A DNA stretch of 64,000 nt, taken from Escherichia phage PHB12. The stretch is taken from the sequence record MK524178.1. The stretch is one strand, 5' to 3'. Shown piece by piece: positions 59,158-64,000 of this stretch (the first letter of the stretch is position 1; each line of letters opens with the position of its first letter). The translations under genes and the position numbers were made by a program. A model generated the notes under the pieces. It saw nothing but the letters and a program-made list of their open reading frames with translations. It was not told where the DNA came from and did no database searches.

Positions 59158-59466
59158 TCAATTAGAAAATAAATTTATCCAAGATTTTTCTTTAATCAAA
59201 AATGGGTCGGAATTAAACGCCATTAAACTTTGAGTGATTAATCCCTTAAATGGCCCATCAATAAATTCCATTTTGAAATGTGGAATACTAGTCATCAACC
59301 GTGCATTAGGAGCAGTACAAAGAACGTGCTGCCCTGCGAACGGACCTTTAGTCAAACGATATCGTTTAGGTTTAAAATGGTAAATCTCGTAATTTTCTAC
59401 AAGAGCCCTTTTATTGCATACTGGGCTGTTATAACAATACTCAAAAACTTCAATAGTGGTCATCAT
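59158..59466 (-). CDS. hypothetical protein
   Basis: Start at MMTTIEVFEY. Confidence 0.4.
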   Translation of the reverse strand: MMTTIEVFEYCYNSPVCNKRALVENYEIYHFKPKRYRLTKGPFAGQHVLCTAPNARLMTSIPHFKMEFIDGPFKGLITQSLMAFNSDPFLIKEKSWINLFSN

Positions 59467-60002
59467 TGCATTCCAATCACAAAAAATTGAGGACGAGCAA
59501 TACCGCCGATGCAATATTTGCTTTTGCAGCAGTGCTGTACTGATTTAATATGGACATTGTAAATCTTATCCATATCAGGAGCTTTAATAGGCTCGTCAAT
59601 TATATACAGAATACGAGAAAGCGTTAATCCACGGAATTTAGAACCTTCATTGCCAATAAAACTACGGACAGAATCAGTAAATAAACGGAATCGAATATCA
59701 TCGCTAGAATAACGAGAAAATTCTTTTTTAATGTTGCCAACAGAAATTTTAGCATAAGCTGAAGTATTAGAAAGAACAATAACTGTTCCACCGTCGTACA
59801 GCCAATTAACAGCAAAATTAGTTACTGCGGTCGATTTACCTGATTGTCTGCCGCCGTCTAAACGAAGTGTACAGTACTGCTTGAGTACGTCTTCAAATGG
59901 CGGGATATAACCATTCTTACAAATTTCTTCTACTCTAGCATCAGAATGGTGTGTAAAAGCATTCATCAGGGATAGATAAGGTCCGGTTAAAAATGTTCTC
60001 AT
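59463..60002 (-). CDS. small P-loop NTPase
   Basis: 179 aa; Walker A GGRQSGKST, Walker B ILYIIDEP. Confidence 0.45.
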   Translation of the reverse strand: MRTFLTGPYLSLMNAFTHHSDARVEEICKNGYIPPFEDVLKQYCTLRLDGGRQSGKSTAVTNFAVNWLYDGGTVIVLSNTSAYAKISVGNIKKEFSRYSSDDIRFRLFTDSVRSFIGNEGSKFRGLTLSRILYIIDEPIKAPDMDKIYNVHIKSVQHCCKSKYCIGGIARPQFFVIGMQ

Positions 60003-60243
60003 TTAGTTTCTCTTTTAGGTTGGGCTGTTCCGTGGCACATGAATTGTCCATTTCTGTATTTACCCATTACCGCACTTGGGCTCGACCTTATTACAGGTTG
60101 GCGGGAATCCCTCATAGAATCATGAGGTCCAGGTTGTTCCCATGTTATTTGAATGTAAATATTTTTGCCTTAATACTTATACCAGTGTGGCTTCATTAAA
60201 ATTTTTTCATCGAGTCATTTTACCTCTCCAAGTAATTATGAAT

Positions 60244-60273
60244 ATACTATCACAATTTTAGGAGAAAGTAAAC
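60244..60273 (-). promoter_or_regulatory. early promoter-like element heading a ~250-nt untranslated leader
   Basis: GTTTACtttctcctaaaattgtgATAGTAT; next sizeable ORF starts at 60002. Confidence 0.45.
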
Positions 60274-60275
60274 TG

Positions 60276-60578
60276 TTATTTACCTTTAATTACTTTAGCT
60301 GCTTCGATAGCCGCTTGCTGAAGGTCGTCCATAGACATACCGAATTTAGAAGCAAAGTTATCAATTTTCTTTTCGACAGCATTCAAAGGCTTGGCCTGTT
60401 TACCTTCATTAGCGCCAGGAAGAGCGAGAATACGCTCTTTGTCAATATAAAGGCTTACAAGTTTCTTACGGTCTTTATCGGATAAATCATGAAATGAATG
60501 GGCCTTTTTATTTATAGCGGCTTCTAATTTACCTGCACTCACTCGCGCTTCAGTAATAAATTCTTGATATGTTTTCAT
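60276..60578 (-). CDS. ipII: internal protein II (capsid-targeted)
   Basis: 100 aa; capsid targeting sequence MKTYQEFITEA. Confidence 0.7.
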   Translation of the reverse strand: MKTYQEFITEARVSAGKLEAAINKKAHSFHDLSDKDRKKLVSLYIDKERILALPGANEGKQAKPLNAVEKKIDNFASKFGMSMDDLQQAAIEAAKVIKGK

Positions 60579-60619
60579 ATGTTTCCTTTAAATGTAAATA
60601 GGCCTAAGTATCGGCCTTA

Positions 60620-61198
60620 TTAATTACCACGGGCTGCATTAGCAACGGCATAAGCGTACTGAACATTAGCGTCTTTAAACGTACCTTTAGAGGTGTCTAT
60701 TTCTGCCTTAAAGCCGCCTTTAGCCATAACATCGGCAAATTCTTTACGGAAGGCCATTGCATCAAGACCCTTCCATGATGATTTATGCTTGGCAAATTCA
60801 AGACCTGCGAAGTTGACAGCTTTAGCCAATTTATTATCAATGACCCATTTACCGGCTTTAGGCACAAACTTCGGGCCTTTTTGTTTAGAGAACAGTTTTA
60901 AATTCCAGCGACGAAGATCACTGTCGGCTTTAACAAAAGCTGCGTCTAAGTTACTAGCAACAACATCTTCAATATGAGCAAATTTAAGTCCGTCAACTTC
61001 AATATTTAGATCGTTACGCCAGCGAAGTCCTTCCCAAGCGAAGGCTTTAAAATCAGAAGCTTTTGTGGCTAGATATCGTTCAAGTGGAGCAGTTTTAGGG
61101 TCGAAGCCGTTTCCACCACGATAAGTCCACTCGTCCTTATTAATGCCTTGAGCTTTTCCTGCAAAGGCCTCGGCGATAAATTCTTTATATGTTTTCAT
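60620..61198 (-). CDS. ipIII: internal protein III (capsid-targeted)
   Basis: 192 aa; capsid targeting sequence MKTYKEFIAEA. Confidence 0.7.
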   Translation of the reverse strand: MKTYKEFIAEAFAGKAQGINKDEWTYRGGNGFDPKTAPLERYLATKASDFKAFAWEGLRWRNDLNIEVDGLKFAHIEDVVASNLDAAFVKADSDLRRWNLKLFSKQKGPKFVPKAGKWVIDNKLAKAVNFAGLEFAKHKSSWKGLDAMAFRKEFADVMAKGGFKAEIDTSKGTFKDANVQYAYAVANAARGN

Positions 61199-61228
61199 TT
61201 TTGTTTCCTTGTTTGTTTTGATAGAGTA

Positions 61229-61258
61229 ATTATACCATATTAATACTTAAGCGTAAAC
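61229..61258 (-). promoter_or_regulatory. early promoter for ipIII (GTTTAC / TATAAT)
   Basis: GTTTACgcttaagtattaatatggTATAAT. Confidence 0.5.
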
Positions 61259-61261
61259 TGT

Positions 61262-61522
61262 TTAAGCTTTACCGCCGGAAATAATTCCGAAGTTGTTAAA
61301 ATCGTATCCAATATCGTCGACATCTACTTTAGGGCTTGCTACAACATAAGCAATTTCACTACGTTTTGCATAGGTGTTGATTTCTTTACCATCGCCACCT
61401 AAGAAAGAATACCCATTACGTTTTAATGAGCCAAAGTCTTCCGCATCACCAATGAAAGCTTTAACTTTAAATTTGGGGTCTTTGGCATCTGCTTCAATGA
61501 TAAATTCTTGATACATTTTCAT
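61262..61522 (-). CDS. internal-protein-like ORF with capsid targeting sequence
   Basis: 86 aa; MKMYQEFIIEA then unrelated cargo. Confidence 0.55.
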   Translation of the reverse strand: MKMYQEFIIEADAKDPKFKVKAFIGDAEDFGSLKRNGYSFLGGDGKEINTYAKRSEIAYVVASPKVDVDDIGYDFNNFGIISGGKA

Positions 61523-61530
61523 TTTTTTCC

Positions 61531-61944
61531 TTAGTAAATTGATTTACCATAGTATTTGTACCAAGTCGGACGTTGAGCAATTTTTTCATCTAAGCGTGCT
61601 TGACTTATCGCAATGGACGCTTCGGACGGGACGTAATTATTACGAAATTCTACAGGAATGTCGGAAATATCCTGGACTGTCGTGTCCTTGATTTTGAAAC
61701 CACGTTTCAAACATTCGGTGATTAGCTCGATTTGACGTAAACGTAAAAATTCGAGTTTGTCGTAAAAGAATGTTACGTGACCTGTGCCTAAGATAAATGT
61801 TGGAGAGATTTTAAAATCTTTTACACGTTTACCGTTTTGAACATGTTTACGGACTGCACCAAATACGCGTGGTAATTCACGATACTCAGCCATAAGATGT
61901 TGGTCGGTCAGTTCGGAAACGAGTGTTAAATTGATACGAGTCAT
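61531..61944 (-). CDS. denV: endonuclease V (pyrimidine dimer DNA glycosylase)
   Basis: Start at [34 protein letters not shown]; near-identical to T4 DenV over its length. Confidence 0.9.
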
Positions 61945-61971
61945 AATTTCCTCCAAGTAGTTGATGAATGT

Positions 61972-62001
61972 ATAGTATCAAAGTCCTTGGAGGAAGTAAA
62001 C
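61972..62001 (-). promoter_or_regulatory. early promoter for denV nested in 8-bp inverted repeat
   Basis: GTTTAC at 61996-62001; arms CCTCCAAG / CTTGGAGG at 61950-61957 and 61986-61993, downstream arm holds the RBS GGAGG. Confidence 0.5.
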
Positions 62002-62002
62002 A

Positions 62003-62284
62003 CTATTTTTCTGAAGCGCCCGAAATATATTTTTCAAGACGTTGTTTCATCAGCGAGCCGTTCTTAGCGATTTCTTCCGGTTTATCGCACATACGCAACA
62101 AGGCTTCAAGCTTAACGATATCACTGGTACGTTCAAATTTGCGAGTATCTATCTTACTAGCAAGTTCAGAAATACGTGCTAATAGACTTTCAGCTTCAAC
62201 CAAAGCTGCACCTAGCTTAGTTGCAAATGTGTCAGTAGCTTCGTTAAGAATAGATTCTGATAAAAATTCACTATATGTTTTCAT
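62003..62284 (-). CDS. internal-protein-like ORF with capsid targeting sequence
   Basis: Start at [11 protein letters not shown]; ATG overlaps lysozyme stop (ATGA). Confidence 0.5.
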
Positions 62285-62769
62285 ATATACGCTTTCCAAG
62301 TTCCTGTTTTAAATGTTGAGATTACGCGTTTCGCGCGATTAGGTGTCTGACGATACCATTTAGATTGGGCTAGATTTACTGCCGCTTCGTCCCAACGTTT
62401 CTGTTGAAGCATACGAAGAGAATTAGTAAAACCAGCGACGCCTGCTACACCCATTTGGAAGACCATATTGACCAATGCACATCGACGAACTGCATCTAAA
62501 GAATCATATACCGGTTTAAGTTTAGCATTACCCAAGATTCCGCGAACGGCTTTATCAACGTCTTCATTAAATAGCTTTTCAGCCTCATCAAGGGTAATTG
62601 TACCGTTGCATTTACGTCCGATCATTCTGTCAAGTTCAGCTTTAGCTACGGCTAAAGACGGGTTCTTTGTTACTAAATGGCCTATGCCAATCGTCCAAAA
62701 GCCTTCAGTGTCTTTGTATAAAGACAGTCTAAGACCTTCGTCATTACGAAGCATTTCAAATATATTCAT
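62281..62769 (-). CDS. e: lysozyme (endolysin)
   Basis: [32 protein letters not shown]... near-identical to T4 lysozyme; catalytic E11, D20, T26 conserved. Confidence 0.9.
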
Positions 62770-62772
62770 AAT

Positions 62773-62794
62773 ACCTCCCACGTTTATAGGAGGT
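62773..62794 (-). promoter_or_regulatory. lysozyme RBS-sequestering hairpin with late-promoter-like box in loop
   Basis: Minus strand ACCTCC-TATAAACGTG-GGAGGT-ATT-ATG; downstream arm is the RBS. Confidence 0.6.
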
Positions 62795-62803
62795 ATTTAT
62801 TAC

Positions 62804-63262
62804 TTATAAGAGGGTAGTGAGCACCTTATATAATGATTTGCCCATTACATATTCCCATTGAGAAGGTTTAATTAAAGCGAATGCATCAAATTCAGGAATC
62901 TGTCGTCCATCCGGGAACGTATGATAGGAATTACAAACACTGTTTCTGAATTGCTCGTGCTCTACAGGGATGGTATATAAGAACAGATGAATATTCTTAT
63001 TGTCTGAGTAATGATGTTCACCTAGGTCTTTCAGGAAGGCAGGGTCATATTGTGTAAACCCAGTTTCTTCTTCGCATTCACGAATAGCGGCTTCGATAGG
63101 AGATTCACCGGGCTCGACACGACCTTTAGGAATATCCCACCGATGAGCTAATGCACCTTTAGGACGAGAACCAGTTACACGGCCCATGAATAACTCTTTA
63201 TCTTCGGTAAGGAAAATAATACCGGCTGATAGTTCTTTCACTTTATTTTTCTTACTCATCAT
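62804..63262 (-). CDS. nudE: Nudix hydrolase
   Basis: 152 aa; Nudix box GRVEPGESPIEAAIRECEEETGF. Confidence 0.85.
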   Translation of the reverse strand: MMSKKNKVKELSAGIIFLTEDKELFMGRVTGSRPKGALAHRWDIPKGRVEPGESPIEAAIRECEEETGFTQYDPAFLKDLGEHHYSDNKNIHLFLYTIPVEHEQFRNSVCNSYHTFPDGRQIPEFDAFALIKPSQWEYVMGKSLYKVLTTLL

Positions 63263-63503
63263 CTCGGTCCCATGATTTGGCCATTAATTCGGACATAAAT
63301 TCTTCAATGCGCGTTTCTTTAGATGGACTTTCACTATTAGAGACCGCAAGTTTGTAATCTGCAATAGGACAGAACATATCAAGGTCCATATTAAGGTCGT
63401 CTTTGATTTTTTCTTCTGACACATCTTTATCGTATGTGTACAGATAACTATCACATGATTCTGATTTAATGTAAATTGCTATACTCATCTCAAATTCCTG
63501 CAT
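63252..63503 (-). CDS. hypothetical acidic protein
   Basis: 83-aa ORF. Confidence 0.4.
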   Translation of the reverse strand: MQEFEMSIAIYIKSESCDSYLYTYDKDVSEEKIKDDLNMDLDMFCPIADYKLAVSNSESPSKETRIEEFMSELMAKSWDRDDE

Positions 63504-63964
63504 TCGGTAATAAAACGTTCAACTTCATTATTCTTGGCTTTTATCTTGTCTTTATGTTCTTGTAAACTACTTTTAATAAGATTAATAATGATGGCGGCGG
63601 TACCGCCGCCAATGATGCCACCAACAACGCTTATGATACTAGATGCTAATAAGATAGCAATAATATCAACAAAACCGAAAGAACTCACCTTAGTACTGAA
63701 AAACCATATAGATGGTACAAATATAATCCATCCTGTTATCCATTGGCACTTATTGAAAAACTTTTCAAGCTCAGCTTGAGTTGTTCGTATTACTTCATCG
63801 ATAGGTTGATATCCATTAATGTATCTGTTCACGATAATACCTGCTGGCTGGTCGATTTTAAATTCTTGGCAAATATGTTTCACTAAGTAGGATGGACATC
63901 CTGTCCAATCTACTGAATAGTATGAAATACCTTCATTGCCATCGTCTATATTATTGTTAATCAT
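63485..63964 (-). CDS. membrane protein
   Basis: 159 aa with glycine-rich TM segment VVGGIIGGGTAAIII. Confidence 0.4.
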   Translation of the reverse strand: MINNNIDDGNEGISYYSVDWTGCPSYLVKHICQEFKIDQPAGIIVNRYINGYQPIDEVIRTTQAELEKFFNKCQWITGWIIFVPSIWFFSTKVSSFGFVDIIAILLASSIISVVGGIIGGGTAAIIINLIKSSLQEHKDKIKAKNNEVERFITECRNLR

Positions 63965-64000
63965 TACCAGCCTTCCATAGGGAATTCCAGATAAACTTGA

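Follow-up and report, generated by a model that had tools for sequence, protein, structure and literature searches.

An e-denV Internal-Protein Hotspot in the RB69-like Phage PHB12 Carries Four Leader-Bearing Cassettes, Including Two Families without a Known Target

Introduction

In a 64,000-nucleotide stretch of the Escherichia phage PHB12 genome (MK524178.1; hereafter the window, coordinates counted from its first letter), four genes around denV encode proteins that begin alike and continue into different bodies. Here we ask to which families these proteins belong, whether their common start is a capsid-targeting leader, how the genes came to lie in an order that differs from T4, and what the proteins might do in an infected cell. 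The window belongs to a Mosigvirus, that is, an RB69-like member of the T4-like phages.

Results

Four Minus-Strand Genes Begin with a Capsid-Targeting Leader

Four ORFs on the minus strand (60276-60578, 60620-61198, 61262-61522 and 62003-62284) start with MK[T/M]Y.EF[I/L].E, and all four genes to which a first-pass annotation of this DNA had ascribed a common capsid-targeting N-terminus are thus present. A six-frame scan of the whole 64-kb window finds the motif in no fifth ORF. Given the six-frame amino acid frequencies, MK.Y.EF..E is expected 0.0004 times by chance, and it occurred in none of 200 trinucleotide-block shuffles of the sequence. The features of the locus are listed here from e toward ipII; a slash marks a cleavage-type site.

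62281..62769, minus strand: e lysozyme, 82.6% amino acid identity to T4 e
62003..62284, minus strand: 93-aa internal protein, assigned to the Ip5 family (= RB69ORF127c); PHROG 3499 "internal head protein", E = 1e-46
61531..61944, minus strand: denV, pyrimidine-dimer glycosylase, between the ip genes; Pfam PF03013, 90.5% amino acid identity to T4 DenV
61262..61522, minus strand: 86-aa internal protein, assigned to the RB69ORF125c family, leader MKMYQEFIIE/A; PHROG 2667 "internal head protein"
61229..61257, minus strand: sigma-70/T4-early-type promoter-like site upstream of ipIII; promoter scan, 10/12 matches
61169..61210, minus strand: ipIII ribosome-binding site and leader-coding DNA, switch point between RB69-like and T4-like sequence; overlap of the two alignments
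60620..61198, minus strand: ipIII homologue, 192 aa, leader MKTYKEFIAE/A; PHROG 5341, E = 2e-117
60600..60617, minus strand: hairpin AGGCCGATACTTAGGCCT between ipIII and ipII, predicted terminator-like; terminator scan
60276..60578, minus strand: ipII homologue, 100 aa, leader MKTYQEFITE/A; PHROG 7857, E = 5e-55
60207..60273, minus strand: fossil ipII-to-denV junction of the T4 type; aligned with the region between T4 ipII and denV and with the PHB12 denV start

The locus is the known, highly variable e-denV internal-protein hotspot of an RB69-like T-even phage, here with four cassettes. The gene order in PHB12 is nudE - e - IP93 - denV - IP86 - ipIII - ipII - vs.8, as opposed to nudE - e - ipIII - ipII - denV - vs.8 in T4, and the earlier remark that denV lies between ip genes, unlike in T4, is therefore correct. 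All four internal-protein genes are members of known families, two of which have no known target; because the families of all four (4/4) have already been described, the locus is in itself an ordinary one. Pfam and NCBIfam hold no family for any of the four, the sole Pfam matches being sub-threshold and on IPII (DUF7412 at 17 bits, and Dimeth_Pyl).

The N-termini read MKTYQEFITEA in ipII, MKTYKEFIAEA in ipIII and MKMYQEFIIEA in the 86-aa protein, and mutual similarity among the four proteins is confined to residues 1-11/13 (BLASTP; hhalign). Mutagenesis of T4 IPIII assigned residues 4 and 7 to targeting and residues 8 and 10 to processing (PMC9026906). Indeed, Y4, F7, I/L8 and E10 are present in all four proteins, which carry gp21-type (L/I)-x-E sites followed by a small residue (ITE/A, IAE/A, IIE/A and LSE/S). 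The proposal that the leader ends in an LxE site needs one refinement: what is conserved across the Ip5 family is an (L/I)xE at residue 15 rather than the one at residue 10; the 93-aa protein has two cleavage-type sites, LSE10/S at the end of the leader and the family-conserved LNE15/A.

In T4, the first 10 leader residues alone packaged foreign proteins, and gene 21 is a core gene of the T4-like phages (PMC9026906). RB69, whose backbone is 95-96% identical to that of PHB12, encodes gp20, gp67 and gp68 at 103.9-106.1 kb; the PHB12 head module lies outside the 64-kb window. For the 86- and 93-aa families, the literature searched yielded neither genetics nor proteomic data on virions. We infer that the four proteins are packaged, cleaved and injected in PHB12.

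IPII and IPIII Are T4 Orthologues in a Mosigvirus Backbone

The first two genes had been taken for IPII and IPIII, and comparison with T4 bears this out. PHB12 IPII is 93.0% identical to T4 IPII over 100 aa (91.1% at the nucleotide level) and IPIII is 92.7% identical to its T4 counterpart over 192 aa (90.2% at the nucleotide level), with PHROG 7857 (IPII) and PHROG 5341 (IPIII) matched across their full length; by this similarity, the two are orthologues of the T4 proteins. The PHB12 pair has the leader, the cleavage site and the adjacency (ipIII, then ipII) of the T4 pair, but it sits in a Mosigvirus backbone downstream of denV, whereas the T4 pair lies upstream of denV. In PHB12, the two genes stand in the place of RB69 ORF124c and ORF123c.

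T4 Ip1, Ip2 and Ip3 each block a different GmrSD enzyme, Ip2 inhibiting that of ECOR21 and Ip3 that of ECOR17 (PMC12373910), and IPIII without its leader still works if made in the host (PMC12373910; PMC9391042). By orthology, PHB12 IPII and IPIII would have anti-GmrSD activity as well.

The 93-aa Protein Resembles Ip5 over Its Full Length

The 86- and 93-aa proteins had been described as novel cargo behind the common leader. Their bodies are indeed unrelated (BLASTP, hhalign), but they are not novel: one falls into RB69ORF125c/PHROG 2667 and the other into Ip5, and RefSeq relatives are annotated "internal head protein."

The 93-aa protein is an Ip5 homologue by its full-length body, beyond the leader. 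It is 48-52% identical to Ip5 of T2, RB70, PP01 and Bas37 (47.6% to Bas37_0261) in an alignment that spans 90% of the protein, tblastn against the ip5 genes of T2 and PP01 gives E = 3e-14 to 2e-17, and the profile matches RB70 Ip5 and T2 Ip5 at 132-136 bits. The Ip5 family is named in UniProt Q38378 (RB70) and in T2 and PP01 records, and the 93-aa protein occurs in 496 phage records; it is 100% identical in many Mosigvirus records. Shared with Ip5 are K23-L-G, an EAExL...RIxELA helix, an EIAKNGS motif and the (L/I)xE15 site, whereas the PHB12 protein has the extra LSE10 site and a C-terminus 8 residues longer. Furthermore, Ip5 sits at the ipI locus (57B - ip5 - trna.4), as in PP01 and Bas37, while the PHB12 gene lies between e and denV. 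Bas37_0260, a McrBC inhibitor, was considered as the Ip5 homologue of Bas37 and rejected, since its body differs and the homologue is Bas37_0261.

An AF2 model of the 93-aa protein has three helices (pLDDT 77). Foldseek searches of PDB and BFVD with this model returned just generic helical matches (E > 0.8) and the protein's own family (a VR26 member), and sequence searches for solved structures of the 86- and 93-aa proteins returned nothing below E = 0.28.

Transposon data in the supplement of a preprint show that the Bas37 Ip5 homologue, just 48% identical to the 93-aa protein, matters in E. coli CFT073: insertions were depleted in this host (log2FC -2.09, adjusted p 0.00000), but not in CFE299 (log2FC -0.01), and the gene is non-essential in K-12, where 18/18 TA sites were hit. 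The depletion may include polar effects, because these are supplementary data without a clean knockout; bas37_0262, upstream of the homologue, is mildly depleted too. CFT073 carries a GmrSD homologue, c5421. This host dependence is one of the modest new details reported here.

The 86-aa Protein Belongs to the RB69ORF125c Family

The 86-aa protein shares 97.7% identity with RB69ORF125c, and PHROG 2667 matches its residues 1-84 at about E = 3e-21 (2.6e-21); its full-length body places it in the RB69ORF125c family, which occurs in 217 phage records and is also found in Gelderlandvirus Salmonella phages. The position after denV is the same as in RB69, with no material difference, and the gene, preceded by an AAGGA ribosome-binding site, starts 8 nt past the denV stop codon.

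Word-indexed searches for homologues of the 86- and 93-aa proteins found few relatives, all close. A profile of the 86-aa family, searched exhaustively with HMMER against 1.84 billion representative proteins, added just a handful of leader-bearing relatives as well as repeat-protein noise near E = 1e-4. In these relatives the N-terminus is always the leader or leader-like (MKTY/MKTF/MQTF/MKSF...), while the bodies have strongly diverged. Because the start is kept despite this divergence of the body, the leader is under selection. When the 86-aa family is compared by hhalign with T4 IPI and with the Ip5 family, the leader alone aligns, and a remote kinship to either was therefore rejected. For the 86-aa protein, AF2 gave an unusable model (pLDDT 41, from a 5-sequence alignment).

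Leader-Coding DNA Marks the Edge of a T4-like Cassette

In nucleotide sequence, the ipIII-ipII pair shares 90-91% identity with T4, compared with 71-80% for the genes on either side. From 61170 to 64000 the window aligns to RB69 at 95.4% identity, from 60603 to 61210 it aligns to T4 at 90.2%, and from 60211 to 60600 it aligns to T4 at 91% (BLASTN). The T4-like alignment at 60603-61210 overlaps the RB69-like one solely at the DNA that encodes the ipIII leader, and this overlap at 61169..61210 is the recombination joint that forms the right junction of the ipIII-ipII cassette. Where PHB12 has ipIII and ipII, RB69 has ORF124c and ORF123c, and phi25-307 has all six genes; in phi25-307, the extra ip gene lies exactly between two repeats of ribosome-binding site and leader-coding DNA.

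The left end of the cassette keeps a leftover T4-type denV promoter and start. Within 60207..60273 lie a promoter-like GTTTAC..TAGTAT, the GGAGAGG of a ribosome-binding site and ATGACTCG, which corresponds to the opening 8 nt of denV; a stop codon comes next. The surrounding 273-bp gap (60003-60275) was considered as a structured RNA and rejected, with no Rfam match and a folding z of -0.05; it consists of the promoter, the fossil denV start and, out of frame, what is left of the N-terminal extension of T4 vs.8. These junction details of the T4-like ipIII-ipII cassette are likewise new here, and they are modest. Across 120 sampled IMG/VR loci, the same leader precedes at least 45 unrelated bodies.

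Expression Signals

Early-type promoters are predicted upstream of denV/IP86 and of ipIII, and an exact late promoter TATAAATA is found directly upstream of none of the ip genes. The site before ipIII (61229..61257) reads TTTACG-17-TATAAT, its -10 hexamer preceded by TG. In phi25-307, an ORF124c-type ip gene is under the control of this same promoter and 5'UTR, and the homologous RB69 stretch also precedes ORF124c. The ATG of the 93-aa gene overlaps the e stop codon as ATGA, an arrangement by which the gene is probably translationally coupled to the e lysozyme gene. Upstream of e, at 62770-62803, alignment with T4 and RB69 shows degenerate copies of the two late promoters of T4 e (7/8 and 6/8 matches) and a hairpin over the ribosome-binding site.

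Discussion

Together, we favor the explanation, at a probability of roughly 0.75, that the locus is a hotspot of leader-delivered, processed and injected anti-defence proteins whose cassettes are shuffled by recombination. The first ~10 residues would act as the T4 capsid targeting sequence does, binding the prohead scaffolding core so that the protein is built into the head. The prohead protease gp21 would then cut after the Glu of (I/L)xE, leaving the mature protein free inside the capsid, from which it would be ejected with the DNA, to act in the host cytoplasm ahead of any phage gene expression. IPII and IPIII would each block a different modification-dependent (type IV) restriction nuclease of the GmrSD type. 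The Ip5-family 93-aa protein and the RB69ORF125c-family 86-aa protein would most likely have a comparable role, presumably inhibiting, as proteins that act stoichiometrically, other first-response defences, ones that recognize the glycosylated cytosines of these phages. The set of ip genes would change through homologous recombination within the short conserved stretches, leader-coding and promoter sequences, found on either side of every cassette.

The suggestion that the two extra proteins are candidate anti-defence effectors is the best-supported expectation, given T4 Ip1-3 (PMC12373910) and Bas37_0260 (bioRxiv 10.1101/2025.11.20.689424), and we put forward anti-type-IV-restriction activity of both as a hypothesis. 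Bas37_0260, a leader-bearing protein encoded at the ipI locus, inhibits McrBC (bioRxiv 10.1101/2025.11.20.689424); it resembles the PHB12 proteins in its leader, its place in an ip hotspot and its type of function, but its body of 77 aa has no kinship to those of the four. Similarly, T4 IPI (Ip1, the inhibitor of the CT596 GmrSD) is small, leader-bearing, gp21-processed and injected, with a mature form of ~76 aa that is like the 86-aa protein in size. IPI has no sequence kinship to that protein past residues 1-8 (hhalign probability 3.7%) and differs in its longer 19-residue propeptide, its basic pI and its locus.

The 86- and 93-aa proteins might instead be injected but act on something besides modification-dependent nucleases, one or both of them inhibiting a defence other than GmrSD or McrBC, such as an arabinosyl- or glucosyl-cytosine glycosylase or a sensor. 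Glycosylases excising glycosylated cytosines, RecBCD-type nucleases and abortive-infection or toxin-antitoxin sensors are possible targets. Such a role would fit the lack of kinship of the two bodies to IPI, IPII and IPIII and the acidic to neutral pI of the mature proteins (5.2 for the 86-aa and 6.3 for the 93-aa protein, net charge about 0 to -1), in contrast to IPI*, IPII* and IPIII*, which are basic (pI 9.0-9.7). Furthermore, glycosylated cytosine DNA is also attacked by defences besides GmrSD (PMC11078745), and Mosigvirus DNA has arabinosylated 5-hydroxycytosine rather than glucosyl-hmC (PMC13390438). However, all leader-bearing proteins with a known target (Ip1, Ip2, Ip3 and Bas37_0260) inhibit type IV enzymes, and RB69/Mosigvirus DNA is cut by the GmrSD-family enzymes CT596, UTI89 and BrxU; we therefore consider a target of this other kind unlikely. 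Were it true, the leader-delivered arsenal would extend past anti-restriction, and the acidic to neutral charge together with the CFT073-specific need for the Ip5 homologue would point to a new target.

Two further readings would give the proteins no injected function. Internal proteins were historically seen as basic, DNA-associated head proteins, and the adjacency and probable co-expression of the four ip genes would suit structural or DNA-condensing head parts (core or scaffold filler, charge neutralization) without a role in the infected cell. With a net charge about 0 to -1, however, the mature 86- and 93-aa proteins would be poor DNA counter-ions; ip genes come and go between phages that are 95-97% identical, and the Bas37 Ip5 homologue is dispensable in K-12 and needed host-specifically in CFT073, which together make a purely structural role very improbable. 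Equally hard to credit is that the common N-terminus is a mere by-product of recombination at the conserved 5' ends of the genes and that the two are ordinary early proteins of the cytoplasm, absent from the virion. A recombination joint does demonstrably lie in the leader-coding DNA, and the predicted early-type promoters and the missing exact late promoter agree with early expression; yet Y/F4, F/Y7, I/L8 and E10 are kept in distant members with strongly diverged bodies, and Ip5 proteins that lack the residue-10 site keep (L/I)xE15, comparable to the residue-19 site of T4 IPI. The coupling of IP93 to the late-expressed e gene and the sufficiency of 10 leader residues for packaging foreign proteins in T4 (PMC9026906) also speak against such a by-product.

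Leader-delivered anti-defence proteins thus remain our preferred reading. Host immunity meets the injected internal proteins before any other phage product, and each characterized one disarms a different modification-dependent restriction enzyme. The PHB12 locus adds no new family to this set; it highlights two widespread families without a target, the Ip5-like and the RB69ORF125c-like proteins, which are reasonable candidates for new inhibitor-defence pairs because the DNA of the genus carries arabinosylated cytosines. Furthermore, its junctions offer a concrete example of how the short leader-coding sequence doubles as a site of recombination through which phages of different genera exchange anti-defence cassettes.

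The ip region encodes four leader-bearing proteins

Four minus-strand ORFs of 100, 192, 86 and 93 aa lie at 60276-62284, and a six-frame scan of the entire 64-kb window found a leader-type N-terminus in no other ORF. By chance, MK.Y.EF..E is expected 0.0004 times (six-frame amino-acid frequencies, 64-kb window), and it occurred 0 times in 200 trinucleotide-block shuffles, in agreement with the first-pass annotation, which had proposed a shared capsid-targeting N-terminus. Past residues 11-13 the four proteins are mutually unrelated by BLASTP and profile comparison, so the claim of unrelated bodies behind a common leader also holds.

Genes and signals of the ip region, in minus-strand order
62804-63262, minus: nudE, first in order
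62281-62769, minus: e lysozyme, between nudE and the 93-aa gene
62003-62284, minus: 93-aa gene, Ip5 family
61531-61944, minus: denV, between the 93- and 86-aa genes
61262-61522, minus: 86-aa gene, RB69ORF125c family; N-terminus MKMYQEFIIEA
60620-61198, minus: 192-aa gene (ipIII); N-terminus MKTYKEFIAEA
60276-60578, minus: 100-aa gene (ipII); N-terminus MKTYQEFITEA
60207-60273, minus: promoter-like GTTTAC..TAGTAT, strong ribosome-binding site GGAGAGG and ATGACTCGATGA, in the T4 ipII-denV alignment
59463-60002, minus: vs.8 homologue (179 aa), last in order, past a 273-bp gap

This order (nudE - e - 93-aa - denV - 86-aa - 192-aa - 100-aa - 273-bp gap - vs.8 homologue) differs, as had been noted, from that of T4 (nudE - e - ipIII - ipII - denV - vs.8). 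Many Mosigvirus (RB69-like) genomes, among them RPN187, AV112, mogra and phi25-307, match the 3.9-kb ip region at 96-97% identity, and the RPN187 arrangement is exactly that of the window.

The 100- and 192-aa proteins are 93.0% and 92.7% identical to T4 IPII and IPIII and match PHROG 7857 and PHROG 5341, respectively, which bears out their initial assignment. The other two had been described as novel cargo, which is incorrect for families and members alike because both families are already annotated and widespread in phage records. The 93-aa protein matches PHROG 3499 ("internal head protein", E = 1e-46), is 100% identical across many Mosigvirus records, and shares 48-52% identity over 90% of its length with Ip5 of T2, RB70 (UniProt Q38378), PP01 and Bas37. 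The 86-aa protein matches PHROG 2667 ("internal head protein") and is 97.7% identical to RB69ORF125c, with relatives at 65-74% in VR7-like coliphages and Gelderlandvirus Salmonella phages. RefSeq names both phi25-307 homologues "internal head protein", and tblastn against 50,697 phage records finds the families in 496 (93-aa) and 217 (86-aa). Pfam and NCBIfam hold no families for the ip proteins. The 86-aa gene starts MKM (61516-61522, minus); in RefSeq phi25-307 gp086 and a number of GenBank records the second Met is taken as the start (MYQEF..., 84 aa), losing the first two leader residues, and the family alignment supports the upstream ATG.

Leader and cleavage sites

Mutagenesis of T4 IPIII showed that the first 10 residues are enough for packaging, residues 4 and 7 acting in targeting and residues 8 and 10 in processing by gp21 (PMC9026906). 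Y4, F7, I/L8 and E10 are present in each of the window's four proteins, the next residue being Ala or Ser. In the Ip5-family alignment the residue-10 site is unconserved (K10 in T2 Ip5, V10 in one relative) and (L/I)xE15 followed by A/S is almost invariant, resembling the residue-19 site of T4 IPI. The 93-aa protein carries both the residue-10 and residue-15 sites, so that maturation could leave either S11 or A16 at its N-terminus. Searched exhaustively by HMMER with the 86-aa family profile, 1.84 billion representative proteins yielded only a handful of true relatives, all starting MKTY/MKTF/MQTF/MKSF..EF/QY..E, whose bodies have strongly diverged despite the kept leader-type N-terminus; the leader is thus under selection and no passive remnant. 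The prohead protease and scaffold, encoded outside the window, belong to the core gene set of this phage group, and RB69 has gp20, gp67 and gp68.

A T4-like cassette and its junctions

The window is 95-96.5% identical to RB69 on either side of 60102-61169 (ipII and ipIII), a stretch without RB69 counterpart, where RB69 has ORF124c and ORF123c in place of ipIII and ipII. Nucleotide identity to T4 is 91.1% for ipII and 90.2% for ipIII, compared with 79.9% for the vs.8 region, 78.4% for denV and 71.0% for e-nudE, which marks the ipIII-ipII pair as a T4-like segment within a Mosigvirus backbone. phi25-307 differs again in having all six ip genes, in the order IP93, denV, IP86, gp085 (ORF124c type), ipIII, ipII, gp082 (ORF123c type).

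On the right, 61170-61210, comprising the ribosome-binding site and leader codons, is the only overlap between the RB69-like and T4-like alignments, and the RB69-homologous stretch likewise stops at the leader codons. Furthermore, the window's ipIII promoter and 5'UTR are those found ahead of the ORF124c-type gene in phi25-307. Leader-coding DNA is a recombination joint here, and the locus a cassette hotspot. At the left edge, sequence downstream of ipII aligns to the T4 ipII-denV intergenic promoter region; here ATGACTCGATGA forms a mini-ORF of three codons, its first 8 nt being the same as the denV start, and the sequence keeps GGAG..ATGACTCG, in which the opening 8 nt of denV run into a stop codon (60207-60218). 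We read 60207-60273 as a fossil of the T4 gene order from cassette transfer.

In PP01 and Bas37, Ip5 lies at another hotspot, the ipI locus (57B - ip5 - trna.4), and in an IMG/VR leader-coding pattern scan the leader was joined to bodies of at least 45 unrelated clusters among the 120 loci listed. The ip loci are reportedly polymorphic, as later papers relate of the work of Repoila et al. in 1994, and the hotspot results fit this long-standing picture.

Among the IMG/VR loci, cluster 0 (L008/L009/L014/L021) and others, including L111, L051 and L115, encode MKTY.EF..E proteins; one leader-bearing family of 161-235 aa is common in environmental contigs, and a few bodies have, to the eye, the look of enzymes, their motifs being reminiscent of ADP-ribosyltransferases or HD-domain proteins. 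The extra locus genes of phi25-307 (L002, 2277-2654 and 3669-3983) and RB69 (L005, 3325-3597 and 3666-3995) are gp082 (ORF123c-type position) and gp085/ORF124c. The leader was confirmed in all three checked (phi25-307 gp082 and gp085, RB69 ORF124c); in gp082 it begins only at residue 17, so RefSeq has probably placed the start of this gene 16 codons too far upstream, and RB69 ORF124c is C-terminally truncated (90 vs 104 aa).

Next to the cassette, a 38-aa ORF (59999-60115, minus; MRDSRQPVIRSSPSAVMGKYRNGQFMCHG...) corresponds to the 40 residues by which T4 vs.8 (219 aa) is extended N-terminally. It is not in the frame of the window's vs.8 homologue, whose start is the internal Met; RB69 vs.8 is likewise annotated in short form. 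Either the start annotated in T4 lies too far upstream or the window has lost the extension. The DNA of the extension region is conserved (~80% identical to T4) and gave no RNA-structure signal.

Expression signals

The 93-aa gene and e share an ATGA, in which the ATG of the former overlaps the stop codon of the latter. Ahead of e, both the window and RB69 retain the hairpin covering the ribosome-binding site, and at the positions homologous to the two T4 late promoters they match these by 7/8 and 6/8. The 86-aa gene has an AAGGA ribosome-binding site of its own and starts 8 nt past the denV stop codon. Promoter-like sites of T4-early type (GTTTAC...TAnnAT) precede both denV and ipIII and also follow ipII. 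No exact late promoter TATAAATA stands ahead of any ip gene, so their late expression is something we infer. The sole nearby copy of this T4 octamer is inside ipII (60509-60516, minus), 62 nt after the start codon, and arises from AAINKK codon choice; T4 ipII (AAVNKK) lacks it. The window holds 5 copies against 7.8 expected, and the one in ipII is probably due to chance.

Probable anti-restriction function

T4 Ip1 inhibits GmrSD of CT596, Ip2 inhibits GmrSD/BrxU of ECOR21 and Ip3 the two-gene GmrSD of ECOR17, cross-protection being absent (PMC12373910), and host-expressed IPIII is active without its leader (PMC9391042). The ipI locus of Bas37 encodes one more leader-bearing inhibitor, Bas37_0260, which acts on McrBC (bioRxiv 10.1101/2025.11.20.689424). 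Mosigvirus DNA is arabinosylated (first reported as ara-hmC, now arabinosyl-5-hydroxycytosine), and GmrSD-family enzymes, including those of CT596 and UTI89 and BrxU, cut it (PMC6024577; PMC13390438). Together, these published activities make it very probable, judging by homology, that the window's IPII and IPIII are GmrSD inhibitors.

Bas37_0261 (Bas37/KarlGJung, MZ501089; 664-921, minus, in L128) is an Ip5 homologue, 96.5% identical to PP01 Ip5 and 47.6% to the window's 93-aa protein. In the HIDEN-SEQ supplement it is non-essential in K-12 (18/18 TA sites hit), its insertions being ~4-fold depleted in UPEC CFT073 (log2FC -2.09, adjusted p reported as 0.00000) and undepleted in CFE299 (log2FC -0.01). 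CFT073 has a GmrSD homologue, c5421 (PMC4437046). The passages of the HIDEN-SEQ main text examined make no mention of the CFT073 effect, and an Ip5-family role there is no more than suggested by these insertion data, in which polar effects are possible and the homologue is 48% identical.

The mature pI is 9.7 for IPII*, 9.6 for IPIII* and 9.0 for T4 IPI*, as against 5.2 and 6.3 for the mature 86- and 93-aa proteins, values which speak against the latter two serving as DNA counter-ions and would suit protein-binding inhibitors. The AlphaFold2 model of the 86-aa protein was unusable (pLDDT 41); that of the 93-aa protein shows, with moderate confidence (pLDDT 77), three helices (4-44, 53-66, 69-87). 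Foldseek with the latter model against PDB and BFVD retrieved its own family only, and neither protein has a PDB sequence match.

Together, the four genes are a genuine set of capsid-targeted internal proteins, known in kind and membership. What the analysis adds is modest: the T4-like ipIII-ipII cassette in a Mosigvirus backbone, supported at nucleotide level with junctions at leader-coding and promoter repeats, along with the denV-start fossil, a refined Ip5-family cleavage site and a CFT073 lead for Ip5. An anti-defence role is the mainstream expectation, well founded for IPII and IPIII and a reasonable hypothesis for the 86- and 93-aa proteins.
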